Part shown: piece after piece, positions 7,061 through 34,272 of the stretch
Position numbering within the stretch: the first letter of the stretch is position 1
Layout: every line of letters begins with the position of its first letter
DNA from: Gammaproteobacteria bacterium
Lineage (GTDB): Bacteria > Pseudomonadota > Gammaproteobacteria > Natronospirales > DASSBR01
Assembly (NCBI GenBank): GCA_035690945.1
Contig: DASSJY010000002.1
Coordinates: forward strand, 19,182 to 83,181
Direction: 5' to 3'
Length of the DNA stretch: 64,000 nt
Position numbers and translations under genes: made by a program
Notes under the pieces: model-generated
The model's database searches: none
What the model saw: only the letters and a program-made list of their open reading frames with translations
What the model was told of the DNA's origin: nothing

Positions 7061-7082
7061 CAGGCCGGCGCAAGCCGGCCTG
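7061..7082. terminator. bidirectional rho-independent terminator between convergent acnA and the permease operon
   Basis: CAGGCCGGC-GCAA-GCCGGCCTG forms a 9-bp GC-rich stem with a GNRA-like tetraloop. It is followed by TTTTG on the - strand and CTTCTTC on the + strand. Confidence 0.7.
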
Positions 7083-7087
7083 CTTCT

Positions 7088-9520
7088 TCATGGCTCAGTA
7101 ATCGCTTCCGCAGGATCAAGGTTCGCCGCGCGCCGCGCCGGCAGATAAGACGCCAAGAGCGTAATCGCGGATAACACCACGGCAGTGCCAAACAGCGTCA
7201 ACGGGTCGAACGGCATTACGTGGAACAGTCGCGACGACAGGACTTGACCGAACACAACCGCCAGTAGCAGACCGCAGATCAGCCCGATCGCCAGCAGCTT
7301 AAGCCCGTCGCGAACTATCAGCCACAGCAAATCTTCGGGCAGTGCGCCCAACGCCAGCCGCACACCGCATTCGGTCACGCGCTGCCCCACCGCGTAGCTC
7401 AGCACGCCGTACACGCCAACCACCGCGAGTGCCAGCGCAATGCAGCCGAAAGCGAGCAGCAAGTCCATGGTTCGCTGCTTGTCGCGCAGCGAGTCGGCCA
7501 GACGCTGGTGCATGGTTTCGACGCCGAACATCGCCACTGACGGATCCACGGCGGCGACGGCCTCTCGCACCGGCTTGACCAGTAAATCCGGCGCAATCGA
7601 GGTGTAAATCACCAGGCGCATCGCCGGTGTTGGCGCTTGCGCCGCGCTGGTATAAATCGCGCCCTTGCCCGGCGTGGTCAAGCGACGCAGTCTCACACCG
7701 GCTACCACGCCGATGATCGTAACCCACTTTTTCTCCCACTTGATCTGTTGGCCTATCGGGTCGGCGCCCTTGAAGTACTTCTTTGCCAGATTGCTGTCGA
7801 TGATTGCAACGGGTCGGCCGCCGGTTGTATCGCGCACATCGAAGTTGCGTCCCCGCAGGATAGGCATGCCAAGTGCTTTGAAGTAATCGGGCCCTACCGC
7901 ATCGAGCCAAGCTTTCGGCTTAACGCTCGAGCCCGAAAGTTCTCGGCCGCGTATGCGAAACCCAGCGTTCATTGAAACATTGCCAATCGGCGCCCACCGG
8001 GCGATACCGGCAGATTTCACACCCGGCAGCGCACGCACGCGTCCCAACACATCACCATAAAAACTATTCAGCGACTGCTTGCTCGCCTGCCCATTGCCGG
8101 TTGCCAACAGGCCAGCGATCAGGACGTGATCCTTGCGGAACCCGGGGTTCACCGATTGCATATTCACGAAACTGTGCAACAGCAGCCCCGAGCCCGCCAG
8201 CAGAACGGTTGCCAGAGTCAGTTCGACGGCGACCAACGTGTTGCGTACGCGCCGCGCGCCGACTCCGCCGCTCATGCCACGGCCGCCCGCCTGCAACAGG
8301 CTCTGCAGATCGGTTTTCGCCAGGTGCCGGATCGGCAACACGCTCACGAGCGCCGTTGTGATACCCACCATCGCGAGCGCAGCCAGGCCCACGCGCCAAT
8401 CGACCGCCTTGTTGAATATGCCGCCGATGCCGCCCCACGCAAACGCTGCGTAGTAATGCAGGCCCAGCCAGCCGAGTCCGACTCCGATGAGACCGCCCGG
8501 CACGGCCAGCGACAGGCTTTCGATCAGCAGTTGCCGCGCCAGCACGGATCGACTCGCACCGAGGGCGCTGCGCATCGCAATTTCATGACTACGCCCGAGA
8601 ACCCGGGACAGCAGCAGGTTGGCGACGTTCACGCAGGTCATCAACAGCACCAGCAGCACCGCACCCTGCAACAGCAGGAGCGTGGACGTTTGCCCATTCA
8701 GCATCGCATCGCGATAGGCCATGGCATGGACGTAGAATCCGGCGTTCGTCACGTCCTGCCAGTCGTCTGCAGATACAACTTGCTCAACCTTCGCGCGCAC
8801 CGCGTCGAGCTGGGTCTGGAGCGCGTTCAGGCTGACGCCCGGCTTCAGGCGGCCGATAAACGTCGGGCTCAGCATGAACATCTTGCCGGGAGCGAGATCG
8901 CCCGGCGTGATCGTCATCGGCATCCAGATGTCAATGGCACGATTGGGAAACATAAAGCCTTTCGGCATCACGCCGATAATGCGTACCGGATTGCCATTCA
9001 GTCGGATCGTCCGGCCGATTACATCGGGATCCGCGCCAAATTTGTTATGCCAGAGGCCGTTGCTGATGACGGCGACCCCGCCCTTCCCCGGCTCGCTCGC
9101 ACCGGAACCGAAAGTGCGGCCAAGCGCCGGGTTGACCTTCAGGACATCGAACAAAGAGCCCGTTGCCACCACGCCGGATATCATTTGCGACGGCGCGCTG
9201 CCGATCTTCACGTTAAAGCCGCGGTAATTAAACATTGCCGTGCTGGAAAAATCGTCGACATTCTTGCGGATCAGCTTATACAGCGACTTCGACATGCTGA
9301 AGAACCCGCCGCCGGTCTTTTTGAAATCGACGCCCACGCCCACAAGCTGGTCGCCATGCGGATACGGCAGCGGTTTCAGCAGATAGCCGTTCAGCACGCT
9401 GAAGACCGCCGTGTTCGCGCCGATGCCGAGCGCGAGTGTGAGAATCGCCGCGGTAGCGAAACCGGGTTTGGCAGCTAATTGCCGCAGGCCGAAACGAAGG
9501 TCATTCAGAAAGCCATTCAT
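7088..9520 (-). CDS. duplicated-FtsX ABC permease, ADOP/MacB-type (paralog 9, last gene of operon)
   Basis: 810 aa. N-terminus is MNGFLNDLRFGLRQLAAKPGF..LTLALGIGANTAVFSV. There are two FtsX-like halves (CVNVANLLLSRVLGRSHEIAMRSALGA and QRVTECGVRLALGALPEDLLW), each preceded by a long non-membrane, MacB-periplasmic-domain-like segment. Confidence 0.85.
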   Translation of the reverse strand: MNGFLNDLRFGLRQLAAKPGFATAAILTLALGIGANTAVFSVLNGYLLKPLPYPHGDQLVGVGVDFKKTGGGFFSMSKSLYKLIRKNVDDFSSTAMFNYRGFNVKIGSAPSQMISGVVATGSLFDVLKVNPALGRTFGSGASEPGKGGVAVISNGLWHNKFGADPDVIGRTIRLNGNPVRIIGVMPKGFMFPNRAIDIWMPMTITPGDLAPGKMFMLSPTFIGRLKPGVSLNALQTQLDAVRAKVEQVVSADDWQDVTNAGFYVHAMAYRDAMLNGQTSTLLLLQGAVLLVLLMTCVNVANLLLSRVLGRSHEIAMRSALGASRSVLARQLLIESLSLAVPGGLIGVGLGWLGLHYYAAFAWGGIGGIFNKAVDWRVGLAALAMVGITTALVSVLPIRHLAKTDLQSLLQAGGRGMSGGVGARRVRNTLVAVELTLATVLLAGSGLLLHSFVNMQSVNPGFRKDHVLIAGLLATGNGQASKQSLNSFYGDVLGRVRALPGVKSAGIARWAPIGNVSMNAGFRIRGRELSGSSVKPKAWLDAVGPDYFKALGMPILRGRNFDVRDTTGGRPVAIIDSNLAKKYFKGADPIGQQIKWEKKWVTIIGVVAGVRLRRLTTPGKGAIYTSAAQAPTPAMRLVIYTSIAPDLLVKPVREAVAAVDPSVAMFGVETMHQRLADSLRDKQRTMDLLLAFGCIALALAVVGVYGVLSYAVGQRVTECGVRLALGALPEDLLWLIVRDGLKLLAIGLICGLLLAVVFGQVLSSRLFHVMPFDPLTLFGTAVVLSAITLLASYLPARRAANLDPAEAITEP

Positions 9521-9541
9521 GCCGTCACTCCCATCTACAGA

Positions 9542-11962: not shown

Positions 11963-11978
11963 CGCAAGCACCTCGCTT

Positions 11979-13412
11979 TTACTCCAGTCCCTCCTCCCCG
12001 GAAGGCGCGTTTGGCTTCTGTTGATTGCCCTGCGCCGGCGATTGCGTAAAATAATCGCTCATGGCCTTCACATCCTCCGGCCCCAGAGCGCCGGCATCCT
12101 GCTTAAGCTTCAGCAGCGACAGCAGGTATGAATACCGCGCGCGCGCATAGGCAGTCTGGGCATTTAGCAGCGTTTCGCGGGCGCGTAGAACATCGAGCGT
12201 AGTGGCCGAACTGGCCTTTTTGAACGCCTCTTCGGTCGCCGCCAGAGATGCCTTGCTCGACTTCACCGATTCCCGTAGCGCCTTGACACTGGCGATACCC
12301 GAAACAACATCGCGGAAATCGGTGACCGTGTTGCTGCGTACCACCAGCGCTTGCTGATCACGGGCCGCTTCGGCGGAGACGTGCTGATACTTCGCCTGGC
12401 TGCTGCGCGCAGCGATCGCGCCGCCGGAGAATATTGGCAGCGAAACCTGAATCCCGACAAAGTTGCCGGTCAGGTTTTGGTTCTGCAGCAGGTTATTACT
12501 GCTGACATCGTTGATATTGTGGCTTGCAAACAGGCTGATATCCGGGTAGCGCGCCGCCTGTTGCCGGTCGACTTCGTGCGCCGCAACCCGAGCCGCCAGC
12601 TTGCTCGCGGTCAACGTCGCGTTTTGCTTCAGAGCCTTGTCAACCCACTTCTCCACATCGTTCGGTTCCGGCAAATCGAGCGGAAGCGTACTCCCCGGTT
12701 CCTTCAGATTCGGAACCGGCGTTTTTGTCAATGCCTGAAGTGTCTGCTGAGTCGCGATCAACGACTGGCGCTTCTGGATGACAGAAGCGCGTGCCTGATC
12801 GTGCGCCGCACGTGCCTGTTGCACGTTGACGATGCCGGACAGGCCAACCTGGTACCGGCGTTCCGCCTGGTGAAGCTGCTTTGCGAGCGCCTGCTCATCT
12901 GCCTTGGTGACACCCAGAATATCTTGTGCTTCGAGCACGTTGAAGTAGGCTTGAGCGGTCTGAATAATGACGCTTTGACGCGCAGCATCGTAGGACGCAG
13001 CCGCCTGCGCCGCTTGCGCATCGGCCTTTGCCAGCGCTACCCAGTCCTGCCAGTCGAATATCGTTTGCGTGACCCTTAACTGAGCGTACGTGCTGAAATT
13101 CGTCAACGTCAGCTGTTGCTGGACAACCTGGTTATCCGTAACGCCAGCCGTCGTACCGCTGTACTTGTCGCGTTCCCGGCTCGCATTGATGTCCAGTTGG
13201 GGCAACAAACCCGACCGCGCGATCGGTTTGTTTTCGACCGCGGCCTTATAGTCGGCCTCGGCCTGACGCAGCAGCGGCGTGTTTTGCTTTACAAGCTGGT
13301 AGACGTCCCACAGGTCGGCGGCATGCGCGGCCGAATAGCCGCTCAGCACAACGCTCGAACAGATCAGACAAATCGTAATCGGACAACGCATATTTTTCCC
13401 ATTGGTTTTCAT
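11979..13412 (-). CDS. TolC-family outer membrane efflux protein
   Basis: Signal peptide MKTNGKNMRCPITICLICSSVVLSGYSAAHA, then a TolC-like N-terminus LWDVYQLVKQNTPLLRQAEADYKAA and two repeated alpha/beta halves. The start was trimmed from 13526 (which overlaps paralog 7) to the ATG at 13412. Confidence 0.85.
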   Translation of the reverse strand: MKTNGKNMRCPITICLICSSVVLSGYSAAHAADLWDVYQLVKQNTPLLRQAEADYKAAVENKPIARSGLLPQLDINASRERDKYSGTTAGVTDNQVVQQQLTLTNFSTYAQLRVTQTIFDWQDWVALAKADAQAAQAAASYDAARQSVIIQTAQAYFNVLEAQDILGVTKADEQALAKQLHQAERRYQVGLSGIVNVQQARAAHDQARASVIQKRQSLIATQQTLQALTKTPVPNLKEPGSTLPLDLPEPNDVEKWVDKALKQNATLTASKLAARVAAHEVDRQQAARYPDISLFASHNINDVSSNNLLQNQNLTGNFVGIQVSLPIFSGGAIAARSSQAKYQHVSAEAARDQQALVVRSNTVTDFRDVVSGIASVKALRESVKSSKASLAATEEAFKKASSATTLDVLRARETLLNAQTAYARARYSYLLSLLKLKQDAGALGPEDVKAMSDYFTQSPAQGNQQKPNAPSGEEGLE

Positions 13413-13419
13413 AAGATAT

Positions 13420-15885
13420 TTACTGCTCCAGAATCGCCACGGCTGGATCGAGCTTCGCCGCCCGCCGCGCCGGCAGGTAGCATGCAGCAACGGTAATGAT
13501 CGACAGGGCCACAACCACGCCGGCAAGCGTCACCGGATCGAACGGTGCGACGTTAAAGAGCTGCGATGAAATGGAATACCCGAGGACCACCGCGAGAAGC
13601 AGACCGCCGCCCAAGCCGATCGCCAGCATCTTCAGGCCATCTCGGATGATCAGCCACAACAGGTCAGCCGGCAGCGCGCCCAGTGCGAGCCGTACACCGC
13701 ACTCCGTCACACGCTGACCGACGACGTAGCTCAACACGCCATATACGCCAACCGCGGCCAGCACCAGCCCCAGGCACGCGAATACCAACACCAGCGCCAT
13801 CACCGCTTCGCGCTCCGCCAGCGACTGGGCAACGGCTTCATGCATGGTGGTGAAATTGCTGATGGATACCAGCGGGTTGATGTTGTTGACGTCCTGCTTG
13901 ACCGATTTGATCAATGTTTCCGGCGGTACGCTACTCTTGACGACAAGGCTGATTCCCGCCGAAAAGATGGCGGGATACTGCATGCTGTCGAGATAGAACG
14001 TGCCACGTTGCGGCGACTCGGCGAGCGATTCGGAATGAATGGTGGCGACTTCAGCGACGATGGTGAACTGCACGCGCTTGTGATCCTTGACAACGCCCCC
14101 GACGGTAATCAAGTGGCCGATCGGGCTTTCGCCGGGGAACCACTTGTCCGCCATCTTCTTGTCGATGATCGCGACCGGCCGGCTGTCCGGCGTATCCTGC
14201 GCGCCAAACAGCCTGCCACGCAGCAGTCGAATATTCAGCGCCCTGAAAAAGCCGCCGCTAACGGCCTCGGCATTACCCACCGGCGCCTTGGCATCAGTAA
14301 TCGATACGCGGCCGGGAACGGTGTAGCCATTGCTGTGCGGCGGATTCTTGATGGGGACGTTCGATACAAGGCCCGCATGCTTCACGCCGGGAATCGCGCG
14401 TATATTACTCAGCAGTTGATCGTAATAGCGGGCCTGCGCGGCGGAGCCCGAACCCCCGCTGTCCGGCGGCAGCAGAATGTCAGCAGTCAGCACATTGCCG
14501 CTATCGAAGCCGGGATCCACCGCCTGCAGCCGCGCCAGGCTGTGTACCAGCAGCCCGGCGCCGCCAAGAAGTGCCGCCGCGAGCGCAATTTCGGCAACCA
14601 CGAGGGCGCTGCGCGTCTGCGTTGCGCCACGGCCACCGCCCACGGCGCGACCGCCCGATTGCAGCAGCGCCTGCGGATCGTTGCGCGACAACTGGCGAAT
14701 CGGCAACACGCTGGTCACGACGGCCACGAGGAGAACCATGCCCAGCGCGAACAAGCCGACACGCCAATCCGGGGTCAGCGTAAACACGCCGAGCCGCGCG
14801 CCGAGGCCGACGTTCCGAATGAATGTCAGACTGAACCAGCCGAGCGCCACGCCCGCCAGCGCACCCGGCACGGCAAGACACAGGCCTTCAACCAGCATTT
14901 GCCGTATCAGCACCCAGCGGCTGGCGCCGAGTGCCGTCCGCATGGCGATCTCATGCGTTCGCCCGAGAATGCGCGCGAGCAGCAGGTTGGCGACATTGAC
15001 GCACGCCATCAACAGCACCAGCAGCACAAAGCCTTGCAGGATCAGCAGTAGCGGCGTTCGATCGCCGAGTAAGACGGCTCGATAGGACCGGACCTTGAAG
15101 CCCCACTCCTTTTGCTTGTACCAGTTCGCAATCAGCGAGGGCACCTTTTTGATGATGTGTGACTGAACCTGGGTCAGTTGCGCGCGGGCCTGCGCAATAC
15201 CGGCGCCTGGCTTGAGGCGCGCGATAACCCCCTGATTGCCCCAGCACGTCCGGCAGTGTGTCAGCATCCCCGGCGGGAAATAGAACGGCGTCCACAGGCT
15301 GACGCGGTTATCAGGAAAAGCGAATCCTTTGGGCATCACGCCCACCACGCGATACGGCTGGCCGTCGAGCCTGATCGACCGACCGACGACATCCGGATCG
15401 CCACCGAAAGCAAGTTGCCAGAACGTATAGCTCAGCACCACGACGTTATCCTGTCCCTTTTCGTCATTGGTCGCGCTAAAGGTACGACCGATCAAAGGTT
15501 GCACGCGTAATATGCTGAACAGGCTGCTGCGTGTACTGACGGTCGTAATCCGTCGGGTGTGGCCGTTGAGCGTGAAGTTGTGATCTTCCGGTGTGTAAAG
15601 CGCTGCTTCGGAGAAGACGTTGGTACCGTGCACCACGTCGTTGAAGTTGGCAATCGATACGCCCGCGTATGGCACCCCGACTACCGGAACGCTCTCATTA
15701 ATAGCAACCAGTTGCTGCGGCTGCGAATACGGCAAGGGCTTCAGCAGATAGCCGTTCAGCACGCTGAACACCGCGGTGTTGGCGCCGATGCCAAGCGCGA
15801 GCGTAACAATAGCTGCGACTGCAAAGCCGGGCTTGGCAGCCAGTTGCCGCAGACCAAAACGTAGATCGTTCAGAAAACCGTTCAT
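13420..15885 (-). CDS. duplicated-FtsX ABC permease, ADOP/MacB-type (paralog 7)
   Basis: 821 aa. The first 22 residues are identical to paralog 9. Two FtsX halves are present (CVNVANLLLARILGRTHEIAMRTALGA and QRVTECGVRLALGALPADLLW). Confidence 0.85.
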   Translation of the reverse strand: MNGFLNDLRFGLRQLAAKPGFAVAAIVTLALGIGANTAVFSVLNGYLLKPLPYSQPQQLVAINESVPVVGVPYAGVSIANFNDVVHGTNVFSEAALYTPEDHNFTLNGHTRRITTVSTRSSLFSILRVQPLIGRTFSATNDEKGQDNVVVLSYTFWQLAFGGDPDVVGRSIRLDGQPYRVVGVMPKGFAFPDNRVSLWTPFYFPPGMLTHCRTCWGNQGVIARLKPGAGIAQARAQLTQVQSHIIKKVPSLIANWYKQKEWGFKVRSYRAVLLGDRTPLLLILQGFVLLVLLMACVNVANLLLARILGRTHEIAMRTALGASRWVLIRQMLVEGLCLAVPGALAGVALGWFSLTFIRNVGLGARLGVFTLTPDWRVGLFALGMVLLVAVVTSVLPIRQLSRNDPQALLQSGGRAVGGGRGATQTRSALVVAEIALAAALLGGAGLLVHSLARLQAVDPGFDSGNVLTADILLPPDSGGSGSAAQARYYDQLLSNIRAIPGVKHAGLVSNVPIKNPPHSNGYTVPGRVSITDAKAPVGNAEAVSGGFFRALNIRLLRGRLFGAQDTPDSRPVAIIDKKMADKWFPGESPIGHLITVGGVVKDHKRVQFTIVAEVATIHSESLAESPQRGTFYLDSMQYPAIFSAGISLVVKSSVPPETLIKSVKQDVNNINPLVSISNFTTMHEAVAQSLAEREAVMALVLVFACLGLVLAAVGVYGVLSYVVGQRVTECGVRLALGALPADLLWLIIRDGLKMLAIGLGGGLLLAVVLGYSISSQLFNVAPFDPVTLAGVVVALSIITVAACYLPARRAAKLDPAVAILEQ

Positions 15886-15903
15886 CGAATGCCTCGGGAT
15901 CAG

Positions 15904-18351: not shown

Positions 18352-18361
18352 AGTCACCACC

Positions 18362-22272: not shown

Positions 22273-22282
22273 ATCAATCCCG

Positions 22283-24727: not shown

Positions 24728-24734
24728 ATTGCTT

Positions 24735-27200
24735 TCATTGCTCCATAATCGCGACGGCCGGATCCAGCTTCGCCGCCCGGCGCGCAGGCAGGTAGCAAGC
24801 AGCCAGAGTGATGAGGCACAGCACGATTGCGCTAGCGATCAACGTCAATGGATCAAATGGCGCGACACCGAACAACTGTGCGCTTATCAAGTAGCCGCAC
24901 AGCACGGCCAGGCTCAACCCGATCACCAGGCCGACCACGAGCAACCTGAGCCCGTCCTTCAATACGAGCCGCTGCAAGTCCCCCGGCAGTGCCCCCAACG
25001 CCAGACGGACGCCGCACTCGGCGCGGCGCTGGCTGACAGCGTAGCTCATCACTGCATAGACGCCGACGATGGCAAGCGCAAGTGCAATGCCGCCGAAGGC
25101 GAGCAGTAATGTCATCGTCGTTTGTTTTTTGCTCAGCGAATCCGCAAATTGCTCGTGCATGGTGTGAATGTCGTACACCGCGATATTGGAATCCATGGCG
25201 GCGACGAGATCCTTAAGCGGTTTGACCAGCGCGTCGGGCGCCATCGCCGTGTGAATCACCCATGTCGTCACCCGGGGTGGACCTTGGTCGCCGGTGGAGT
25301 ACGCAGCGTTGAGGTAAATGGTGGTTGACGCCAGTGATGTCGACAGCTTCGAGTACTTGACTGATGGCACAACTCCGATAATGGTGAATTTCCGGTCATC
25401 CTTGTCACCTCCGAAATCGATCTGTTGGCCAATCGCATGGCCGTCGGCGAAATACTTTCGCGCGAGCCCCGCGTCAATGATCGCCGTCGGTTGCTTCGCA
25501 TCGCGCGCATCGAACTGTCGCCCGCGCAAAATGGGGATTCCGAGCGCCTTGAAATAGCCCTGACCGACGCGGTTGACCATCGCTCCGGGTGGTTTCGGCG
25601 GCGGCTTTCTACCGGGAATAGTAAATGCCGATATAGGCAACGACCCGCCCATCCGCCCGCCCATTAACGGTAGAATTTGAGCCATGGCGACCTCCCGCAC
25701 CCCCGGAAGCGCGTCCACACGCTGCGTCAGATCGTCATAAAATCCGGATAATGCCTTGCCGGGATGATCCTTCTCCGGCACCAGCAGGCTCGCCATCAGC
25801 ACATGATCCTTGCGAAAGCCGGGATTGACTGCCTCAAGGTTCATGAAGCTATGCAGCACCAGGCCGGCCATGGCCAGCAAGCCGGTCGCGAGCGCCAGTT
25901 CGCTGATCACAAGCGCGCTACGGATGCGCCTCGCGCGTCGGCCGACGCCACTCGTGCGACTGCCTTCCTGCAAGGTCATCTGCAGATCGGTTTTGGCCAA
26001 GTGGCGAATCGGCAGCACGCTGACCAAAGCGGCGGTGAGTAACACCATTCCCACAGCGAACAGGCCGACGCGCCAGTCGAGGGAGGCGCTGAACATGGCG
26101 CTACCGCTATCGAACGACGATCCCGCCACAAAGACCAAAGCCAACCAGCACAACGCTACGCCCGCGATGCCCCCCGGCACTGTCAGGCACAACGCTTCGC
26201 CCAACAGTTGCCGCGCCAGCACCGCTCGACTTGCTCCCAGCGTGCTGCGTATCGCGATTTCATGGCTGCGCCCAAGGATGCGAGATAACAGCAGGTTGGC
26301 GACATTAACGCAGGTCATCAGCAGAATTAGCAGCACCGCCCCTTGCAGCAACCACAAGGTTGCCGCGCGATCGCCCAGTAGAACATCGCGCCAGGGCCGG
26401 ACACCCATCGTAAATCCGGCGCCTTGGGCCAGTTTCCGGAGTTGAGCGGGCGCTTTATCCTGAATAAATGCGCCGATCGCGTGTTGAACCTGTACTTCTG
26501 CGGCTTCCCGGCCGACATCGGGCTTGAGTCTGTCTATGGATGCCACGTTGATCGCCATAGCGCGCATCGGGGCGAAGCTTTGCGGCGTAAGCCTGTACGG
26601 CAACCATAGCGACGTAGCGCGATCGGGAAAAGCAAAGTCTTGAGGCATAACACCGATAATCCGGTAAATGCCGTCGTCGAGTTGTACCGTTTTGCCGATG
26701 ACGCCGGGATCGGCGCCGAAACTGTCGTGCCACAGCTTATAGCTGATCACCGCCGCAAGATTACTGCCGGCATGCATATTGTCAGGCGTGAAGGTTTGAC
26801 CAAGCAGCGGCGACACGCCCAGGACGGAGAAAAGCGATGATGAGGCGTACACGCTGGATACTCGCGTGGCTCTGCCATTCACCTTGACGCTGGAGGTGCC
26901 TTGAACATAAAAGGCCATTTCCGCAAAGGCGTCAGTATTCTGTTCTATAGCCTGATAGAGCGGCAGAGATGTGCCGGGAAGCGGTTCGGCCCTGACCTTG
27001 GGAATGCTGCTGTACAGTTGTACCAACTGGCCGCCGTGCGGATACGGTAACGGTTTTAACAAGTAACCGCTCAAAAAGCTGAAGACTGCGGTATTGGCGC
27101 CGATGCCCAGCGCGAGCGTCAGAATCGCAGCGGCCGCGAAGCCGGGTTTGGCCGCGAGTTGGCGCAAACCGATGCGTAAGTCGTTGACAAAACCGTTCAT
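24735..27200 (-). CDS. duplicated-FtsX ABC permease, ADOP/MacB-type (paralog 3)
   Basis: 821 aa. N-terminus MNGFVNDLRIGLRQLAAKPGF. The first FtsX half is nearly identical to that of paralog 6 (LWLLQGAVLLILL.TCVNVANLLLSRILGRSHEIAIRSTLGASRAVLARQLLGEALCLTVPGG). Confidence 0.85.
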   Translation of the reverse strand: MNGFVNDLRIGLRQLAAKPGFAAAAILTLALGIGANTAVFSFLSGYLLKPLPYPHGGQLVQLYSSIPKVRAEPLPGTSLPLYQAIEQNTDAFAEMAFYVQGTSSVKVNGRATRVSSVYASSSLFSVLGVSPLLGQTFTPDNMHAGSNLAAVISYKLWHDSFGADPGVIGKTVQLDDGIYRIIGVMPQDFAFPDRATSLWLPYRLTPQSFAPMRAMAINVASIDRLKPDVGREAAEVQVQHAIGAFIQDKAPAQLRKLAQGAGFTMGVRPWRDVLLGDRAATLWLLQGAVLLILLMTCVNVANLLLSRILGRSHEIAIRSTLGASRAVLARQLLGEALCLTVPGGIAGVALCWLALVFVAGSSFDSGSAMFSASLDWRVGLFAVGMVLLTAALVSVLPIRHLAKTDLQMTLQEGSRTSGVGRRARRIRSALVISELALATGLLAMAGLVLHSFMNLEAVNPGFRKDHVLMASLLVPEKDHPGKALSGFYDDLTQRVDALPGVREVAMAQILPLMGGRMGGSLPISAFTIPGRKPPPKPPGAMVNRVGQGYFKALGIPILRGRQFDARDAKQPTAIIDAGLARKYFADGHAIGQQIDFGGDKDDRKFTIIGVVPSVKYSKLSTSLASTTIYLNAAYSTGDQGPPRVTTWVIHTAMAPDALVKPLKDLVAAMDSNIAVYDIHTMHEQFADSLSKKQTTMTLLLAFGGIALALAIVGVYAVMSYAVSQRRAECGVRLALGALPGDLQRLVLKDGLRLLVVGLVIGLSLAVLCGYLISAQLFGVAPFDPLTLIASAIVLCLITLAACYLPARRAAKLDPAVAIMEQ

Positions 27201-27212
27201 GTCTCTCTCTTT

Positions 27213-29666
27213 TTATTGGTCCATCATCGCGACGGCCGGATCGAGCTTCGCGGCACGGCGTGCCGGCAGCCAGCAGGCCATCAGCGTAATCGCACACAAC
27301 ATCAATGCGCTGCCAATCAGCGTCAGCGGATCAAACGGTACAACGCCGAACAACTGCGACGAAATCAGGAAGCCGCATAACACGGCGAGGCCAAGGCCGA
27401 GAACAAGGCCGACCGCAAGCAGCTTCAAACCATCCTTCAATATCAACCATTGCAAATCGCCCGGCAGCGCGCCAAACGCCAAACGAACGCCGCATTCCGC
27501 GCGACGCTGTCCCACGGCGTAACTCATCACGGCATACACGCCGACAATCGCAAGCGCCAACGCAATCCCACCAAACGCGAGCAGCAAAGTCATCGTTGTC
27601 TGGTTATCGTTCAGCGAATCCAGCAATTGCGCGCGCATGGTGTGGATGTCGGCAACGGCGACATTCGGCGCTATCGTGGCCAGCAGGTTTTGTACCGGCT
27701 TGATGAGCGCAGCTGGTGGCAGCTTGGTGTGGATGACAAGATACATATCGGGCGTCACACTGTATTTGCCGATGTCGATGTAAACGGCGGCCGACAGTTT
27801 GGGCTGCGACAATCTCGTGTATTTGACCGGCGGCACAACGCCGACAATGGTGTATATCTGTTTGGCGCCATAGTCGATCTTTTGCCCGATCGGGTTCACA
27901 CCGCGGAAATACTTTTTGGCCACGCGGGCATCGACGATCGCATGCATCTTGCCCGCATCGCGTTCATCGAAGCGTCGCCCGCGTAAAATCGGAATGCCGA
28001 GCGTTTTGAAATACCCTGGACTGATAAAATCCTGGATAGCCCCCGGCGACTCGCCCGAAGGCTGCGGTGGCCGGCCGGGAATGGTGAAGCCGTTGAAAAT
28101 TGCCATATTGCTCATCGGCACGGAAGCGGTAATCCCGGATTGCCAAACTCCAGGCAGTCCATCCACGCGCTTCACCACGTTGTTGTAAAACTGGCTCATC
28201 GCTTTGTCGTGCAAATAATCCTTGGGCGACAACAGAAGCTGCGCGATCAATACATGGTCCTTGCGAAAACCGGGATCGACGGCTTCAAGATTCATAAAGC
28301 TGTGCAGCACCAGGCCAGCCATTGCAAGCAAGCCGGTCGCGAGCGACAGTTCGGCAATAACGAGCGTATTGCGGACGCGCTTTGCGCCGCGCCCCCCGGT
28401 GCTGCGGCTACCCTCCTGCAAAGCAGTTTGCAGATCAGTTTTGGCGAGTTGACGGATCGGTAAAACGCTAATCAAGGCCGCGGTGACCAGCGCCGCGCCA
28501 AGTGCAAACAACCCGACGCGCCAGTCAAGCGCGATGTCGAATATGCTGCTACCAACGCCGAGAGCCGAGCCCGCCAGAAAGTGCATGCCGAACCAGGCGA
28601 GACCGAAGCCGATCAAGCCACCGGGCACTGTCAGGCACAACGCCTCGCCAAGCAATTGTCGCGCCAGCGCGCCCCGGGTCGCGCCAAGCGTGCTGCGGAT
28701 CGCGATTTCATGGCCGCGACCGAGAATGCGCGACAGCAACAGGTTGGCAACATTGACGCAGGTGATCAGCAAAATCAGTAACACCGCGCCTTCCAGCAGC
28801 CATAACGTCGCGGGGCGGTTGCCGAGCAATCCCTGCCGGTACGATTGGGCGCGCATTGAAAACCCCATGCTCTTTAGCAGTTTCCGGTTGTACATGAGGT
28901 TGCCCACTTTGATGGGGAAATTATTGTCGGTCCATGTCTGAACTGCTTGCCGTACTTGCCGTTGCGCCGTCGCGATGCTGACGCCGGGTTTGAGCCAGCC
29001 AATAAATCGAGTATCGAGTGCCGATAGAAACCGCGTCGGATCGAAAGTTTTGGGAACGATCGGTTGCGGTAACCATATCGAGATGTCGTGGTCCGGGAAC
29101 GCGAAGCCGCGCGGCATCACGCCGACGATTCGATAATCCTCGCTTTCAATATTGACAGCCTTGCCGATGATGTTGGGGTCTGCGCCGAACGTAGTGCGCC
29201 AGAGCGAATAACTGATGACTACAACCTGGTCGCTGCCAGGCTTCATGTCGGCTTTGGTGAAGGTATGCCCGAGCATGGGCTGCACGCCGAGAACGCGAAA
29301 CAGCGACGCCGTAGTGATCAGCCCGCCGACGCGCTGCGCGCGTCTGGCGGCGTTCAGATTGAAATACTCGCGATGGTAAACGGCACCAGCGGCAAAGGCC
29401 TTGGTGTGCCTTTGAACGATTTGATACATCGGCATCGAGATACCGGAATCACCGCTGCTAAATTTTGGAAGCTCCGTGTTAAGTTGCGCCAGCCGGCCGG
29501 CGTGCGGGTACGGTAGCGGCTTGAACAGATAGCCGCTCAGAACGCTGAACACCGCCGTATTGGCGCCGATGCCAAGCGCCAGCGTGAGGATGGCCGCGGC
29601 GACAAATCCAGGCTTGGCTGTAAGTTGATGAATGCCAAAACGCAGGTCTGTGAGAAAGCCGTTCAT
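27213..29666 (-). CDS. duplicated-FtsX ABC permease, ADOP/MacB-type (paralog 2)
   Basis: 817 aa. N-terminus MNGFLTDLRFG. Collinear with paralogs 4 and 6 over the full length. Confidence 0.85.
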   Translation of the reverse strand: MNGFLTDLRFGIHQLTAKPGFVAAAILTLALGIGANTAVFSVLSGYLFKPLPYPHAGRLAQLNTELPKFSSGDSGISMPMYQIVQRHTKAFAAGAVYHREYFNLNAARRAQRVGGLITTASLFRVLGVQPMLGHTFTKADMKPGSDQVVVISYSLWRTTFGADPNIIGKAVNIESEDYRIVGVMPRGFAFPDHDISIWLPQPIVPKTFDPTRFLSALDTRFIGWLKPGVSIATAQRQVRQAVQTWTDNNFPIKVGNLMYNRKLLKSMGFSMRAQSYRQGLLGNRPATLWLLEGAVLLILLITCVNVANLLLSRILGRGHEIAIRSTLGATRGALARQLLGEALCLTVPGGLIGFGLAWFGMHFLAGSALGVGSSIFDIALDWRVGLFALGAALVTAALISVLPIRQLAKTDLQTALQEGSRSTGGRGAKRVRNTLVIAELSLATGLLAMAGLVLHSFMNLEAVDPGFRKDHVLIAQLLLSPKDYLHDKAMSQFYNNVVKRVDGLPGVWQSGITASVPMSNMAIFNGFTIPGRPPQPSGESPGAIQDFISPGYFKTLGIPILRGRRFDERDAGKMHAIVDARVAKKYFRGVNPIGQKIDYGAKQIYTIVGVVPPVKYTRLSQPKLSAAVYIDIGKYSVTPDMYLVIHTKLPPAALIKPVQNLLATIAPNVAVADIHTMRAQLLDSLNDNQTTMTLLLAFGGIALALAIVGVYAVMSYAVGQRRAECGVRLAFGALPGDLQWLILKDGLKLLAVGLVLGLGLAVLCGFLISSQLFGVVPFDPLTLIGSALMLCAITLMACWLPARRAAKLDPAVAMMDQ

Positions 29667-29713
29667 GTTGTATCTCTAGTCCCCTTAACGTCCGGGAGCG
29701 GGAAATGGAAAAG

Positions 29714-32155
29714 TCACTGCTCCACGATCGCTACGGCCGGGTCGAGCTTCGCAGCACGACGTGCCGGTAGATAACACGCGAGCAGCGTGATGACAGCCAT
29801 GACGATGGCGGTACCGGCCAACGTCAGCGGGTCGAACGGCGCGACACCGAACAGGCGCGCCGAGAGCAGGTACCCCATCACGACAGCGAGGGCCAGGCCC
29901 ACCACCAAGCCGACCGCGAGCAGCTTGAGCCCGTCCTTCAGCACCAGCCACAGCAGGTCCTCCGGCAGCGCGCCCAGGGCCAGGCGCACTCCGCACTCGG
30001 TGGTACGCTGACCGACGGCGTAGCTCATGACGCCGTAAACACCGATGATGGCGAGTGCCAGCGCGATTGCGCCAAATGCGAGGATCAGAATCATCAGCGA
30101 CTGGCGGCCTTGCAAGTTGTGCGCGATCAGGTCCTGCACCGATTCAAAGTCATTGGCGGTGGCGCCGGGAGCAACTTGCGCTACTGTGGCCTTGATCGCC
30201 TTGACCTGCGAATAAGGCGGCAGCGTGGTCTGGACCACGAGCGCAAGCGCCCCTCCCCGCTGCGCAAGCATCGCCAACCATTGGGCCGACTGGCTCACCG
30301 GGAAATAGGCGGTGCCCATGTTGTTCGCGCGGCTCAGTTGCTCGGCACGCATCGACGAAACAACACCGATGATCGTGGTTTTCGTATCGCCCATTTTCAG
30401 GGTGCGCCCGACAGGGTTTTTGCCGGGATACGCCTGTTGTGCCATGACGTCATCGATCACCATGACAGGCTGGCTGTGCGCGGTATCCTGCGCGTTGAAC
30501 AGCCGCCCGCGCAGCAGCCGCAGGCCAAGGGTTTTGAAATACCCGGTATCGGTGATATTCCACCAGGCGAATGGCGCATACTTCGGCCGCCCCGGGACTT
30601 CATAGCTGCCGTTGACCCCGTAGCTGAGCGGCAACTGCAACGCCACGCCCGCGCTTTCCACCCCCGGCACGGCATGGATTTGATCGAGCAATTGATGGTA
30701 AAAACTCGCCGCGGCCTCGCCCGACACCTGCGGCGGCGGCGCAACTTTGGCCGTCAAGACGTGGCTTGTGCGAAAACCGGGATTGATGCCGCTTAACTCA
30801 ATGAAACTGTGCATCAGCAGCCCGGCGCCGGCGAGAAGCGCGGCCGCCATAGCCATTTCAGCCACAGCCAGAACATTGCGAACGTGCCTGGCGCCGCGCC
30901 CACCGCCGATGCTGCGGCCGCCTTCCTGCAGAATGCCTTGCAGGTTGCCCCGACTGAAATGTCTGATGGGCAAGAGGCTGATTACAACCGCCACCAGGAG
31001 TACGACCCCAAACGTAAATACACCGACGCGCCAATCGGGGTTTATGGTGAAAATCTGCGATCCTCCGAGGCCCAGATTTTGTACGAAGCCGAGCGCCCAC
31101 CAGCCGAGTGCCATACCGGCGATGCCGCCGGGCACCGCCAGGCAAAGGCCTTCGATCAACAGTTGGCGTGCAAGGACTCCGCGAGTCGCGCCCAGCACGC
31201 TGCGCATGGCGAGTTCATGCGTGCGGCCGAGAATGCGTGCGAGCAAGAGGTTGGCGACATTGACGCAGGCGATCAAAAGAACCATCAGTACGGCCGCCTG
31301 CAGCAAGAACAGGGTCGAGTCTTCGTCGCCGACGAGCTTGTCGCGATACGGACGTGCGTTCCAGTCAAGGCCGACCTGGGCCTGCGACTGTTTCATTTCC
31401 GCGCTGGTATCGATTACCTGATCAAGAACCGCCGCTAGTCGTGCATTCGCCTGCTGCAGGCTCACGCCCGGCTTCAGTCGCGCAATCACCGGCGAATTCT
31501 GGTTGCGCCGAAACGCTTCCGATTTCATCTTCGCGGTCATCACGTACGGCGTCCACAGCCGCGCCAAACCGAAACCGATGTCGACATTCATGGTTCGTGG
31601 CATCACACCGATGATCGTGTACGGCTCCCCATTCAACTTGATGGACTGGCCGATCACGCTCCGGTCGGCGCCGAAGGTCTGTTGCCAGAAACTGTAGCTC
31701 AACACGACAACATGACCGCGCCCGGGCTGCTGCGCGGTACTGTCAAAGGTGCGCCCAAGCAGCGGTTTGACTCCGAGCACATCGAATAACGACGCCGTCG
31801 CCATCGACGCATGTACCCGCTGCGTCTGACCGCCCGCCTGCACGGCGTAACTTCGCCACGTCCACGCGCCGATCGACGAAAACACGTCATGGGTGTTTTG
31901 CTTGATACTCAGATAGTTCGGCAGCGATAACGGAGCGTGCTGAATCCCCGGCTTGATTTGATGCTCGCTGACGTCTACCAGTTGCTCGCTGTGCGGGTAC
32001 GGCAGCGGCTTCAGCAGGTAGCCATTGAGCACGCTGAACACGGCTGTGTTGGCGCCGATGCCGAGCGCAAGCGTCAGGATCGCCGCAGCCGCGAAGCCGG
32101 GCTTCGATGCCAGCTGGCGCAGGCTGAACCGCAGGTCCGTTAACAGGCCGTTCAT
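29714..32155 (-). CDS. duplicated-FtsX ABC permease, ADOP/MacB-type (paralog 1)
   Basis: 813 aa. N-terminus MNGLLTDLRFSLRQLASKPGF. Two FtsX halves. Starts 18 nt after the ATPase stop. Confidence 0.85.
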   Translation of the reverse strand: MNGLLTDLRFSLRQLASKPGFAAAAILTLALGIGANTAVFSVLNGYLLKPLPYPHSEQLVDVSEHQIKPGIQHAPLSLPNYLSIKQNTHDVFSSIGAWTWRSYAVQAGGQTQRVHASMATASLFDVLGVKPLLGRTFDSTAQQPGRGHVVVLSYSFWQQTFGADRSVIGQSIKLNGEPYTIIGVMPRTMNVDIGFGLARLWTPYVMTAKMKSEAFRRNQNSPVIARLKPGVSLQQANARLAAVLDQVIDTSAEMKQSQAQVGLDWNARPYRDKLVGDEDSTLFLLQAAVLMVLLIACVNVANLLLARILGRTHELAMRSVLGATRGVLARQLLIEGLCLAVPGGIAGMALGWWALGFVQNLGLGGSQIFTINPDWRVGVFTFGVVLLVAVVISLLPIRHFSRGNLQGILQEGGRSIGGGRGARHVRNVLAVAEMAMAAALLAGAGLLMHSFIELSGINPGFRTSHVLTAKVAPPPQVSGEAAASFYHQLLDQIHAVPGVESAGVALQLPLSYGVNGSYEVPGRPKYAPFAWWNITDTGYFKTLGLRLLRGRLFNAQDTAHSQPVMVIDDVMAQQAYPGKNPVGRTLKMGDTKTTIIGVVSSMRAEQLSRANNMGTAYFPVSQSAQWLAMLAQRGGALALVVQTTLPPYSQVKAIKATVAQVAPGATANDFESVQDLIAHNLQGRQSLMILILAFGAIALALAIIGVYGVMSYAVGQRTTECGVRLALGALPEDLLWLVLKDGLKLLAVGLVVGLALAVVMGYLLSARLFGVAPFDPLTLAGTAIVMAVITLLACYLPARRAAKLDPAVAIVEQ

Positions 32156-32173
32156 GTTGTGGAGTCCCTGTGC

Positions 32174-32911
32174 TTATTCGGCAACTGGCGAGGCCGCCGA
32201 AGCCGGATTCGAAATAGTGATGTCCTCATCCACGATCTGGCCGTCGAAGAGCTGGATCGTGCGCGCAGCACGGGTCGCGTAGCGCGGGTCATGCGTAACC
32301 ATGCAGATGGTCGCGCCTGCATGATGCAGCTCGTCCATCAGTTCCATCACCGCCTCGCCGCTGGCCGAATCCAGGTTACCGGTCGGCTCGTCAGCGAGCA
32401 GGATCGACGGTTCGCCGACCAGTGCGCGAGCCACGGCAACGCGCTGCTGCTGACCACCGGACAGCTGCGACGGGTAATGGTTGACGCGGTGCGCCATGCC
32501 GACCCTTTCCAGCACCGTATTCACCTTTTCGCGCCGCTCTTCCTTGCTCGTGCCGCCGCGATACACCAGCGGCAACTCGACGTTCTCGTACACGCTTAAA
32601 TCGCCGATCAGGTTGAACGTCTGGAAAATGAAGCCGATCTCGCGGTTGCGGATGTGTGCGCGGTCGGCGTTGTCGAGTTCCTCGATCGCCGTGCCGTTCA
32701 ACTGATACGTGCCGCTGGTCGGTGTCGACAGCAGGCCGAGAATCGACATCAGCGAGGTCTTGCCGCAGCCCGAAGGCCCAAGGATGGCGACGTATTCGCC
32801 ACGGTCGATGTCGAAGCTGATGCCGTTCAGCGCATAGGTCTCGACTTCGTCGGTGGCGTAGATCTTTTTCAGGTTATCGATTCTGATCAGCTGCATTTCA
32901 TCGTCTTTCAT
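32174..32911 (-). CDS. ABC transporter ATP-binding protein, MacB/LolD family (the only ATPase in the cluster)
   Basis: Walker A GPSGCGKTS, ABC signature LSGGQQQRVAVARAL, Walker B ILLADEPTGNLD, H-loop MVTHD. I prefer the ATG at 32911 (MKDDEMQLIRI) because GGAG lies 7 nt upstream. The alternative ATG at 32938 overlaps the adaptor stop by 8 nt. Confidence 0.88.
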   Translation of the reverse strand: MKDDEMQLIRIDNLKKIYATDEVETYALNGISFDIDRGEYVAILGPSGCGKTSLMSILGLLSTPTSGTYQLNGTAIEELDNADRAHIRNREIGFIFQTFNLIGDLSVYENVELPLVYRGGTSKEERREKVNTVLERVGMAHRVNHYPSQLSGGQQQRVAVARALVGEPSILLADEPTGNLDSASGEAVMELMDELHHAGATICMVTHDPRYATRAARTIQLFDGQIVDEDITISNPASAASPVAE

Positions 32912-32930
32912 CGTTTGCTCCGGTTTGCGA

Positions 32931-34202
32931 TTACCCATGACTCAACTCGATTCGGTCGTACTGGCTCCATTGGGAGGTATCCGACACAATGACCTTGTCG
33001 CCTGGCTTGAGCCCGGCGACGACCTGTACGGCATTGGCCGACGTGCGGCCCAGTTCCACCTTGGTGCGCGTGGCGAGATCACTGCCCGGCACCAGCCGGA
33101 ACACGCTCAGCGTATCGCCCGCCTGCACGCCCGCCGGCCGATCCATGTAGAGCACGTTGTCGAGCTTCGCGAGCACGATTTCGCCCTGCACGTCCAACCC
33201 GCTGCGCAAGTCCTTGGGCGGGTCTCCGACCGGCGCGACATCGATTTCGACGGTGCCGTTCTCCACCGTCGGATTGACGCGAATGACCTTGCCGGTGAAC
33301 GTGCTGTTGGCGCCGCCGAACGCGGTCAGCATCACGTGTTGACCGATCGCGATCGCCCCCGCTTGCGATTCGGCGACCTGCAACTTGGCCATCAGGTTGT
33401 TCTGCTGCGCGATGCGCGCTATGTCCGCGCCAACCGCCAGGTGCTGACCGTCCTGTATTGCGACCTGCGTGACGATGCCGGTCATGCCGGCCTTGACGTG
33501 CAGATTTTCGAGGTCGTACTGGCGCGCGACGAGATCGGCCTCAAGCTGCGCAACTTCCGCCTGCTTCGCGTTCACCTGCGCCTCAAGGCTTGCCTTGAAT
33601 TGCTGAATGCGCTGTTTGTCGGAAGCGACCTTCTGCTTGAGCTGCTCCGCCTTCGCAATCGTCTGCCGGTAATCCAGCTCGGAAATGATGTGTTCCTTGA
33701 CGACCTGCGCCTGCGCTTTCTTCTGAAACTGCGCGACCTGGTAATTGCTTTCGTCCTGCGCCAGCGTATTCTCGAGGTCGAGCAACTGGCTTTGAAGTTG
33801 CGCCTTCAGCGATGCGAGGTCCGCCTTGCCGGTTGCCACTTTCGTTTTCGCCTGCGCGACCGCCTGCACCACTTCAGGGTTGTGCATGACGGCCAGCACC
33901 GTGTCCGGTTCCGCGTGGTCGCCCGGCCGCACCAGGCGCTTCTCGACCACGCCGACGGCAGGCGCGGTGACCCATTGGATAACGCGCGGCGTCAAAACGC
34001 CCGACGCCTGCACGGTGATTGTGAGCGGGCCCTGCTTGACAGTACTGACCAGCACCGACGAGCGTGGCACGCTCGGCGCTGCAGGCTTGAGAAACGCCAC
34101 CAGCACGATGGCGGCTATGACGACGGCGGCGACGGAACCGATCAGCGCAAAGCGCTTGCGCTGGCGTTTGCGGCGATGTTCGGCGGAACGGGGCTTGTCC
34201 AT
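32931..34202 (-). CDS. HlyD/MacA-type periplasmic adaptor (membrane fusion protein)
   Basis: N-terminal basic segment plus TM helix (RKRFALIGSVAAVVIAAIVLVAFL), a long coiled-coil region (KADLASLKAQLQSQLLDLENTLAQDESNY...) and a C-terminal beta-barrel-like part. I chose the ATG at 34202 (AGAGGA upstream). The ORF-track TTG at 34238 directly abuts the sigma54 promoter and cannot be the start. Confidence 0.85.
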   Translation of the reverse strand: MDKPRSAEHRRKRQRKRFALIGSVAAVVIAAIVLVAFLKPAAPSVPRSSVLVSTVKQGPLTITVQASGVLTPRVIQWVTAPAVGVVEKRLVRPGDHAEPDTVLAVMHNPEVVQAVAQAKTKVATGKADLASLKAQLQSQLLDLENTLAQDESNYQVAQFQKKAQAQVVKEHIISELDYRQTIAKAEQLKQKVASDKQRIQQFKASLEAQVNAKQAEVAQLEADLVARQYDLENLHVKAGMTGIVTQVAIQDGQHLAVGADIARIAQQNNLMAKLQVAESQAGAIAIGQHVMLTAFGGANSTFTGKVIRVNPTVENGTVEIDVAPVGDPPKDLRSGLDVQGEIVLAKLDNVLYMDRPAGVQAGDTLSVFRLVPGSDLATRTKVELGRTSANAVQVVAGLKPGDKVIVSDTSQWSQYDRIELSHG

Positions 34203-34238
34203 GAAATCCTCTGGTTGCGGGTTATACCGTATACGCAA

Positions 34239-34253
34239 GCAAAATCCGTGCCA
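34239..34253 (-). promoter_or_regulatory. sigma54 (-24/-12) promoter P1 of the adaptor-ATPase-permease operon
   Basis: The - strand reads TGGCAC-GGATT-TTGC, a full match to the TGGCAC-N5-TTGC consensus. The predicted transcription start lies about 25 nt upstream of the adaptor ATG. Confidence 0.75.
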
Positions 34254-34272
34254 GACAGAACTTGTCTATAAA

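Follow-up and report, generated by a model that had tools for sequence, protein, structure and literature searches.

A putative sigma-54-controlled type VII ABC efflux locus with nine paralogous ADOP permeases and a single ATPase, adaptor and TolC

The DNA analysed here, a 64-kb window from an uncultured gammaproteobacterium (Gammaproteobacteria bacterium), contains an operon of 13 genes, all on the minus strand (7088-34202; open reading frame (ORF) map and start-codon inspection), in which nine paralogous permeases of the ADOP family are encoded together with one ATP-binding cassette (ABC) ATPase, one membrane fusion protein (MFP) adaptor and one TolC-family outer-membrane factor (OMF). On balance, this locus is probably a chromosomal tripartite efflux or extraction system of the MacAB-TolC type (type VII ABC), controlled by sigma-54 and a two-component system, whose membrane part consists of nine ADOPs that share the one ATPase, adaptor and TolC. 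The sharing model draws on the single ATPase of the operon, the near-identity of the coupling helices of the permeases, the divergence of their periplasmic domains and the purifying selection under which they evolve, together with the conserved position of adaptor, ATPase and TolC in related genomes and the excess of ADOPs over ATPases in arrays elsewhere. An earlier sequence-only reading of the same DNA had proposed that alternative permeases might assemble with the same ATPase, adaptor and OMF; the pattern of conservation fits this proposal, whilst the sharing itself, the best reading of the locus, is inferred, as are the co-transcription of the genes and their substrates. In the order of transcription, the genes of the operon are:

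32931-34202, minus strand: MFP adaptor, MacA-like, with an N-terminal transmembrane (TM) anchor; start ATG at 34202
32174-32938, minus strand: ABC ATPase of the MacB/LolD/DarD subfamily
29714-32155, minus strand: P1, ADOP permease, 813 aa (Pfam and TIGR03434)
27213-29666, minus strand: P2, ADOP permease, 817 aa (Pfam and TIGR03434, AlphaFold2 (AF2) model)
24735-27200, minus strand: P3, ADOP permease, 821 aa (Pfam and TIGR03434)
22283-24727, minus strand: P4, ADOP permease, 814 aa (Pfam and TIGR03434)
20812-22272, minus strand: S12 serine hydrolase (PF00144, signal peptide, motifs)
18362-20815, minus strand: P5, ADOP permease, 817 aa (Pfam and TIGR03434)
15904-18351/18360, minus strand: P6, ADOP permease, 815-818 aa (Pfam and TIGR03434)
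13420-15885, minus strand: P7, ADOP permease, 821 aa (Pfam and TIGR03434)
11979-13412, minus strand: TolC-family OMF (OEP x2, TIGR01844)
9542-11962/11971, minus strand: P8, ADOP permease, 806-809 aa (Pfam and TIGR03434)
7088-9520, minus strand: P9, ADOP permease and final gene of the operon, 810 aa (Pfam and TIGR03434)

The number of co-oriented genes and their order (adaptor, ATPase, P1-P4, hydrolase, P5-P7, OMF, P8, P9) are as first described, and the gaps run from overlaps of 8 and 4 nt up to 47 nt. An alternative TTG start for the adaptor, at 34238, falls within a promoter. In the window, tblastn detects nine ADOP genes and a single ABC ATPase of this kind.

Two MacB_PCD and two FtsX Pfam stretches are present in every one of the permeases, which bears out the initial description of nine intact proteins with duplicated FtsX halves. 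All nine likewise match the ADOP profile, TIGR03434, with 778-824 bits (curated cutoff 622.3 bits) across profile positions ~1-800 of 803, so that every protein passes the profile searches that had been proposed as a check. When compared with the structural database (PDB), a profile built from the nine recovers MacB (5gko/5lil) at E ~1e-30. Structure prediction from the nine paralogs alone proved unusable (pLDDT 58, pTM 0.40) and was replaced by prediction from a 68-sequence alignment, which yielded a model of P2 (pLDDT 84.5, pTM 0.79) with 8 TM helices and two periplasmic domains of mixed alpha/beta fold. The top full-length match of this model in a Foldseek search of the PDB is Escherichia coli YbbP (E 2e-17), with MacB at 1e-14; Spr0695, BceB, LolC/E and HrtB are also found, all of them type VII ABC proteins. 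The defining features of this type, a MacB-like structure and a unit of four TM helices in which a large periplasmic domain separates TM1 from TM2, are present, and the ADOP is predicted from the model to be a direct 4+4 TM fusion, a single polypeptide with both MacB-like halves. The family name and description imply permeases that are orphans, i.e. ATPase-free, and of acidobacterial origin, and the sequence-only reading had described them as expanded in Acidobacteria and typically without an adjacent ATPase. Neither trait applies here, where an ATPase gene stands at the head of the operon and both the host and its nearest relatives are gammaproteobacterial, the latter known as metagenome-assembled genomes (MAGs).

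Conservation among the paralogs is very unevenly distributed. Overall, pairwise identity is 46-74%, the highest value being that of P2 and P6 (74%). TM1 is 91% identical among the nine and the coupling helices, the cytoplasmic loops that follow TM2 and TM6, are 76% and 81% identical, whereas the two periplasmic domains share only 39% and 37% identity. Docking of all nine permeases to the same ATPase, with specificity set in the periplasm, fits this difference between coupling helices and periplasmic domains.

The remaining parts of a tripartite pump are encoded alongside the permeases, the gene content comprising a transporter with both an adaptor and a TolC-family OMF. The ATPase is an ABC_tran protein (Pfam) with Walker A, Walker B, Q-loop, LSGGQ and H-loop motifs, and its top NCBIfam matches are DarD, the nucleotide-binding domain (NBD) of MacB, LolD, FtsE and DevA, all below their equivalog cutoffs. 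The adaptor contains HlyD_D23 and HlyD_3 (Pfam), exceeds the cutoff of TIGR01730 (RND_mfp; 107.5 bits vs 94.9), has weaker matches to DarC and MacA and bears its TM segment at residues 20-38; its gene also heads the array in related genomes. The OMF has two OEP domains and scores 259 bits against TIGR01844 (TolC; cutoff 225), and its orthologs, which are 72-89% identical, occupy the same position of the array in relatives.

The best matches of the ATPase, TolC and P2 are in Gammaproteobacteria MAG assemblies, some of the proteins being 100% identical, and every ADOP relative with a named source, to as low as ~45% identity, is gammaproteobacterial, so that the array is not a recent import from Acidobacteria. 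The closest relative with accessible DNA is GCA_035688265.1, represented by two loci (L001 and L064). At the head of its array the histidine kinase (95% identical), the response regulator (455 aa in L001, 94%), the divergently transcribed MFP (96%), the ATPase (98%) and P1 (92%) are all closely similar to those of the window. P1 is followed by three permeases with poor matches in the window (64%, 51% and 78%), then by P4 (86%), P5 (88%), P6 (84%), P7 (76%), TolC (89%) and P8 (86%), and the tail is composed of an oppositely oriented PIN/RHH toxin-antitoxin pair, P9 (86%), a highly diverged ADOP (32%) and cupins. The P9 ortholog, in L064, aligns only from residue 132 and may be N-terminally truncated. 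The hydrolase is missing from this array, as are close counterparts of P2 and P3; among the closest relatives, no ortholog of P2 exceeds 76% identity. A more distant relative, on a contig of the Joint Genome Institute (JGI; L003 and L061, ATPase 91% identical), encodes MFP, ATPase, four ADOPs, TolC and at least four further ADOPs; the hydrolase is again absent and the same toxin-antitoxin insertion is present.

Three relatives keep the succession two-component system, MFP, ATPase, ADOP array, TolC and further ADOPs; in the window, as in every relative examined, P7 immediately precedes the TolC gene, and the flank on the regulator side (rhodanese, SDR, MarR-MFS efflux) is the same in relatives. 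The proposed search for synteny recovers the core of adaptor, ATPase, multiple ADOPs and TolC, the hydrolase not belonging to it. Comparison with the arrays of both relatives shows that this core is conserved while the P1-P4 segment and the tail of the array turn over. When 22283-29666 of the window is set beside 13243-20610 of L001, the segment between P1 and P4 is completely different, with P2 and P3 in the window and three other ADOPs (best identities 51-78%) in L001, and this segment is a hot spot of cassette turnover within the array. The toxin-antitoxin pair is VapBC-like and is situated, on the opposite strand, after the first permease downstream of TolC (16364-16989 in L064, 13994-14619 in L061). 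The arrays seem able to accommodate foreign insertions, namely the hydrolase in the window and the toxin-antitoxin pair in relatives.

Selection was estimated by the Nei-Gojobori method against the closest relative. The ratio of non-synonymous to synonymous substitution (dN/dS) across the operon genes extends from 0.035 for the ATPase to 0.16 for P9, and the seven permeases with orthologs give values of 0.08-0.16, indicative of purifying selection. Within the permeases, the periplasmic domains show a higher dN than the TM and cytoplasmic remainder, most clearly in P7 (0.27 vs 0.03). The permease copies are predicted to be functional, with the fastest evolution in their periplasmic parts. That the paralogs are decaying, or simple dosage copies, was rejected on the basis of these dN/dS values (0.08-0.16), the 46-74% identity between them and the concentration of their divergence in the periplasm.

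In contrast to the core genes, the S12 serine hydrolase is not a conserved part of the array. The protein itself, predicted to be secreted, seems sound, with a signal peptide and intact S108xxK, Y200SN and H330SG motifs, and its gene is tightly embedded, the start of P5 overlapping its stop by 4 nt. Among solved structures, its nearest relatives are alkaline D-peptidase, DD-carboxypeptidases, AmpH-like penicillin-binding proteins and the catalytic domain of ClbP; a ClbP-like membrane-anchored enzyme was considered and rejected, as the C-terminal TM helices are missing. It may degrade a D-amino-acid peptide or a beta-lactam-like compound in the periplasm. The gene is absent from the orthologous arrays of three relatives, and a scan of 185,579 species genomes identified homologs at 56 loci (at most 68% identity), mainly in Acidobacteriaceae, with some in Steroidobacteraceae, Verrucomicrobiota and Brevundimonas. 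None of these loci has an adaptor or ATPase nearby and few have even a single, distant ADOP. The nearest homologs (58-68%) belong to MAGs of Acidobacteriaceae and Verrucomicrobiota, not to Gammaproteobacteria, and the local GC content is slightly lower (0.58 vs ~0.61), which suggests that it was acquired horizontally. Given its absence from orthologous arrays and the lack of linkage of its homologs to adaptor or ATPase genes, the hydrolase is a recent, lineage-specific insertion, well integrated, rather than a core component. The idea that it is a conserved component of the system was accordingly abandoned, the 56 homologous loci having almost no ADOP, ATPase or MFP neighbours.

Arrays of this general kind are widely distributed. 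Wenzhouxiangella sediminis and two JGI contigs encode MFP, ATPase, three ADOPs, a second ATPase, a sigma-54 response regulator and a histidine kinase, in that order. The second ATPase of these three-ADOP modules (L004 18191-18889; L067 18470-19129) is 43% identical to the first and precedes the sigma-54 regulator; the two might form a heterodimeric NBD pair. A Bryobacterales MAG has the order MFP-ATPase-x-ADOP. When metagenomes were scanned with an ADOP alignment, 80 loci were found at ~32-37% identity, and for the 23 of these with at least 15 kb of sequence the ADOPs within ~22 kb were counted: nine loci have one, five have two, four have four, two have six, one has seven and two have at least eight, filling the view. 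An ATPase is in view at 6 of the 9 loci with at least four ADOPs vs 2 of the 14 with one or two, and the recurring patterns are MFP-ATPase-ADOPn and ADOPn-ATPase-response regulator-histidine kinase. In Psychroflexus torquis, a 42-kb, highly translated cluster with ~10 ADOP paralogs and ATP-binding transporter genes, of unknown function, has been published (Feng et al. 2014, PMC3914696), and Dyadobacter genomes are reported to hold 28-33 ADOP copies (PMC11573002). The uniqueness implied by the sequence-only reading is not upheld: ADOP arrays with one or more ATPases, an MFP and, often, a sigma-54 two-component system recur widely, in further Gammaproteobacteria, in Acidobacteria and in soil metagenomes, a ten-ADOP cluster was already in print, and multi-permease MFP-ATPase-ADOP arrays are common in environmental bacteria. 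Its statement that no characterised system has this organisation does stand as far as literature searches reach, these having returned only descriptive mentions and no functional work on any ADOP or ADOP array (PMC3914696, PMC11573002).

The regulatory genes and sites associated with the operon are:

34845-36212, plus strand: NtrC-type sigma-54 response regulator, with Response_reg, Sigma54_activat and HTH_8 (Pfam) and AtoC/NtrC/ZraR-like NCBIfam matches
36196-37563, plus strand: sensor histidine kinase, with PAS and HATPase_c (Pfam) and AtoS/ZraS-like NCBIfam matches
34778-34801, minus strand: palindromic enhancer-like site 1, TTCGATTATGGAACG...CGTCCCGGAATCGA, ~93 bp upstream of promoter 1
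34688-34703, minus strand: sigma-54 promoter 1, TGGCACGTAATTTGCT, with the exact -24/-12 consensus
34392-34622, minus strand: inter-promoter leader with a 76-aa Arg-rich ORF (MNGLLRVPT...)
34322-34354, minus strand: palindromic enhancer-like site 2, TTCGATTATGGGACGTGGCGTCCCATAATCGAA, ~92 bp upstream of promoter 2
34238-34253, minus strand: sigma-54 promoter 2, TGGCACGGATTTTGCT, 36 nt upstream of the adaptor ATG
7057-7086, minus strand: intrinsic terminator, a 13-bp stem with 8 GC pairs and a T tail, directly after P9

The elements expected of sigma-54 control, namely a -24/-12 sequence (TGGCAC-N5-TTGC), an adjacent gene for an enhancer-binding protein and upstream activator sites, are all present in the sequence. 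A consensus promoter in front of the operon had been recognised before; there are in fact two in tandem, since exact matches to TGGCAYG-N4-TTGCW occur in the window at 34238-34253 and 34688-34703 and nowhere else. The palindrome pattern TTCGATTATGG.ACG...CGTCCC..AATCGA is similarly confined, in the window, to the intergenic region between operon and regulator, with 0 matches expected by chance. Together, the sites make up a duplicated regulatory module (34238-34801, minus strand) of two palindrome and sigma-54-promoter units ~450 bp apart, and both promoters and both palindromes are kept in the related loci L001 and L002 despite otherwise diverged intergenic DNA. Two sites with one mismatch to the sigma-54 consensus, inside P2 and P6, were not counted as promoters, because they are within chance expectation and lie in the coding sequence of two paralogs that are 74% identical.

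The response regulator gene is divergent from the operon, its ORF opening at 34806 with the likely start ATG at 34845. In the kinase, a periplasmic loop of only ~8 residues lies between the two N-terminal TM helices (hydropathy and sequence), and direct binding of a periplasmic ligand is unlikely. A kinase so nearly devoid of a loop is of the intramembrane-sensing type and recalls BceS, which senses via its own type VII transporter. Between the two promoters, the ribosome-binding site and start codon of the leader ORF are conserved and its protein sequence poorly so; in a relative with an ATPase of 91% identity, conservation is limited to its first few codons. Its first residues resemble the N-terminus of an ADOP (MNGLL/MNGFL). 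The region has no family match in Rfam, and its predicted RNA fold is unremarkable (z-score -2.8); the 76-aa ORF might represent a leader, the remnant of an ADOP start or a short peptide with a regulatory role. The terminator at 7057-7086 is bidirectional and common to the convergent aconitase gene. No comparably strong terminator occurs inside the operon, internal terminator-like matches being weak and at chance frequency, in agreement with the earlier view that the sole strong terminator follows the last gene.

In the mechanism that we propose, a membrane or envelope signal would cause the kinase to phosphorylate the NtrC-type activator, which would bind the two palindromes and fire the tandem sigma-54 promoters to give one long transcript extending to the sole strong terminator. 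Each permease would then bind two copies of the single MacB/LolD-type ATPase via its conserved cytoplasmic coupling helices and dock beneath the same MacA-like adaptor and TolC, whilst the divergent periplasmic domains would confer a different substrate range on each pump. Antimicrobials of an amphipathic or peptidic nature, along with other toxic compounds, would be the likeliest substrates.

Other explanations of the locus have to be weighed against this one. It is unlikely, on the analogy available, that the array is of mixed function, with only some of the ADOPs forming tripartite pumps and the embedded S12 hydrolase a possible partner of others. This idea is kept alive by YbbAP-TesA, in which fused type VII permeases can act as membrane extractors that feed a periplasmic hydrolase and do so without adaptor or TolC (PMC12646458), and it gains from the position of YbbP as top full-length Foldseek match, the strong differences between the periplasmic domains of the paralogs, the 4-nt overlap that couples the hydrolase gene translationally to P5 and the intact signal peptide and catalytic motifs. 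Set against these are the 8 TM helices of the ADOP compared with the 10 of YbbP (PMC5985334), the status of adaptor and TolC as conserved parts of the array and the absence of the hydrolase from the orthologous arrays of three relatives. Moreover, as the 56 hydrolase loci are almost without ADOP, ATPase or MFP neighbours, there is no conserved hydrolase partnership of the kind that identified TesA. A dedicated exporter of a self-made product, either a peptide or ribosomally synthesized and post-translationally modified peptide, as exported by DarBCD in the case of darobactin, or a glycolipid, with the paralogs handling variants of it, is very improbable: there are no biosynthetic genes in the 64 kb, the neighbours being housekeeping and other efflux genes, and the regulator-side flank has the same genes (rhodanese, SDR and MarR-MFS efflux) in relatives. 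Such an exporter is called to mind by the top NCBIfam matches, DarD for the ATPase (249 bits) and DarC for the adaptor (82 bits), but these scores are far below the respective equivalog cutoffs of 375 and 450; S12 peptidases do include prodrug-activating peptidases of the ClbP type, but the hydrolase has no C-terminal TM helices like those of ClbP and is not conserved in relatives.

It is also distinctly unlikely that the operon ATPase serves only one or a few of the permeases, the other ADOPs being orphans that depend on ATPases encoded elsewhere, or else inactive or decaying. Decay is contradicted by the nine intact ORFs and by dN/dS values of 0.08-0.16 in the seven permeases with orthologs. 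Dependence on distant ATPases would suit the naming of TIGR03434 for orphan permeases, the scarcity of ATPases near metagenome loci with one or two ADOPs (2 of 14) and the related small modules, in which two ATPases accompany three ADOPs; however, an ATPase is in view at 6 of the 9 loci with at least four ADOPs, and the coupling helices are nearly identical across the nine permeases of the window.

Several considerations also weigh against the sharing of one ATPase, adaptor and TolC by all nine permeases. MacB/LolD-type ATPases elsewhere in the genome, beyond the 64 kb, could serve some of them, and the conservation of the coupling helices could reflect general constraints of the fold instead of a common partner. 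The smaller related modules hold two ATPases per three permeases, so a ratio of one ATPase to nine permeases is no general rule. LolCDE and YbbAP, both type VII systems, work without adaptor or TolC (PMC12646458), and the assignment of a substrate class by analogy with MacB, BceAB and YknYZ is a guess. A bolder form of the sharing model, 'one engine, many heads', is put forward tentatively as a possibility that we regard as somewhat doubtful. One NBD dimer, adaptor and TolC would here be used interchangeably by at least nine fused permeases, the repertoire of which would turn over between close strains as cassettes between P1 and P4 are gained, lost and duplicated, to provide a broad, evolvable detoxification of the envelope that protects against antimicrobials, the loop-less kinase perhaps sensing the activity of the transporters, as in Bce modules, and so driving the sigma-54 promoters.

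The surroundings of the operon are rich in efflux genes. An EmrA-like adaptor and an MFS transporter (40668-43236, plus strand) are encoded near the array, relatives having a MarR regulator upstream of this MFS pair, and an RND adaptor with an AcrB-family pump (43685-48006, plus strand) is also close by. An EAL/GGDEF protein is encoded at 48106-49872. Further along, a KaiC-family ATPase (50261-51793, minus strand) adjoins two large hybrid PAS/GAF histidine kinases with receiver domains (52690-55647 and 55805-58948, both plus strand); these may constitute a KaiC-linked signalling cluster separate from the ADOP operon.

In soil bacteria, few membrane-protein families are as expanded as the duplicated permeases of the ADOP type, with dozens of copies per genome and arrays of eight to ten reported. 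If the sharing model is true, it would add a principle of modular specificity to tripartite efflux pumps and would explain the orphan appearance of many ADOP genes. To our knowledge, the combination of one energiser with many specificity components has so far been known only from importers, i.e. ECF transporters and multitask ATPases. The locus offers a compact test case, with a single ATPase for nine intact permeases that evolve under selection, a switch made up of sigma-54 promoters and a two-component system, the binding sites of which are recognisable, and relatives that differ in their permease sets. Its value is limited by the uncultured host and by the presence of equivalent arrays in the culturable W. 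sediminis and P. torquis.

Amongst known systems, MacAB-TolC of E. coli, Acinetobacter baumannii and Aggregatibacter actinomycetemcomitans has the same 4-TM permease fold, with the MacB periplasmic core domain between TM1 and TM2, and the window also resembles it in its MacA-like membrane-anchored adaptor, TolC-family OMF and NBD of the MacB/LolD subfamily. Unlike MacAB-TolC, the window encodes its NBD separately and joins both permease halves in a single chain with 8 TM helices; it has nine permeases per NBD, adaptor and TolC, and regulation is by sigma-54 and a two-component system of the NtrC type. The published ADOP arrays, such as that of genomic island 43 of P. torquis (PMC3914696), are similar in having multiple ADOPs, of which all nine in the window are full-length members of the family, together with ATP-binding transporter genes, and soil metagenome loci have, like the window, arrays of four to at least eight ADOPs with ATPases. 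The window differs from the published arrays in its gammaproteobacterial host, the TolC gene embedded at a fixed position, the single ATPase, the tandem sigma-54 promoters and the inserted S12 hydrolase.

In YbbAP-TesA (PMC12646458), too, both halves of a type VII permease are fused, two periplasmic domains are present and the ATPase is a protein of its own; the system is paired with a periplasmic hydrolase. YbbP is the best structural match of the ADOP. According to a review of the MacB family, YbbP and BceB are both 10-TM fusions (PMC5985334). YbbP differs accordingly from the ADOP, for which 8 TM helices are modelled, and TesA is a thioesterase/esterase, not an S12 peptidase, in a system with no adaptor or TolC. 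The hydrolase of the window, moreover, is not conserved and its homologs are unlinked to ADOP genes, so that the locus does not belong with YbbAP-TesA. LolCDE is also of type VII, and Foldseek matches its permease fold to that of the ADOP; one LolD homodimer serves the non-identical LolC and LolE, as each asymmetric ADOP would need. LolCDE differs in its fixed C/E pair, the transfer of lipoproteins to LolA and the lack of an adaptor, TolC or paralog array.

BceAB-BceS resembles the locus in pairing a type VII permease with a two-TM histidine kinase that is essentially devoid of an extracellular sensor loop. In contrast to the ADOP, BceB has 10 TM helices and one extracellular domain, and BceR is OmpR-type and sigma-70-dependent. 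The minimal loop of the kinase does match this system, but the window has an NtrC-type regulator and 8-TM permeases with two domains each. Group II ECF transporters and the multitask ATPases MsiK/MsmK provide a precedent in which one ATPase module serves many alternative membrane specificity components, although these are importers with unrelated folds. We know of no tripartite exporter of the ADOP-array kind that has been shown to share one energiser among its permeases. The array is a probable multi-permease version of the type VII ABC tripartite pump and belongs to the widespread, descriptively known class of ADOP arrays.

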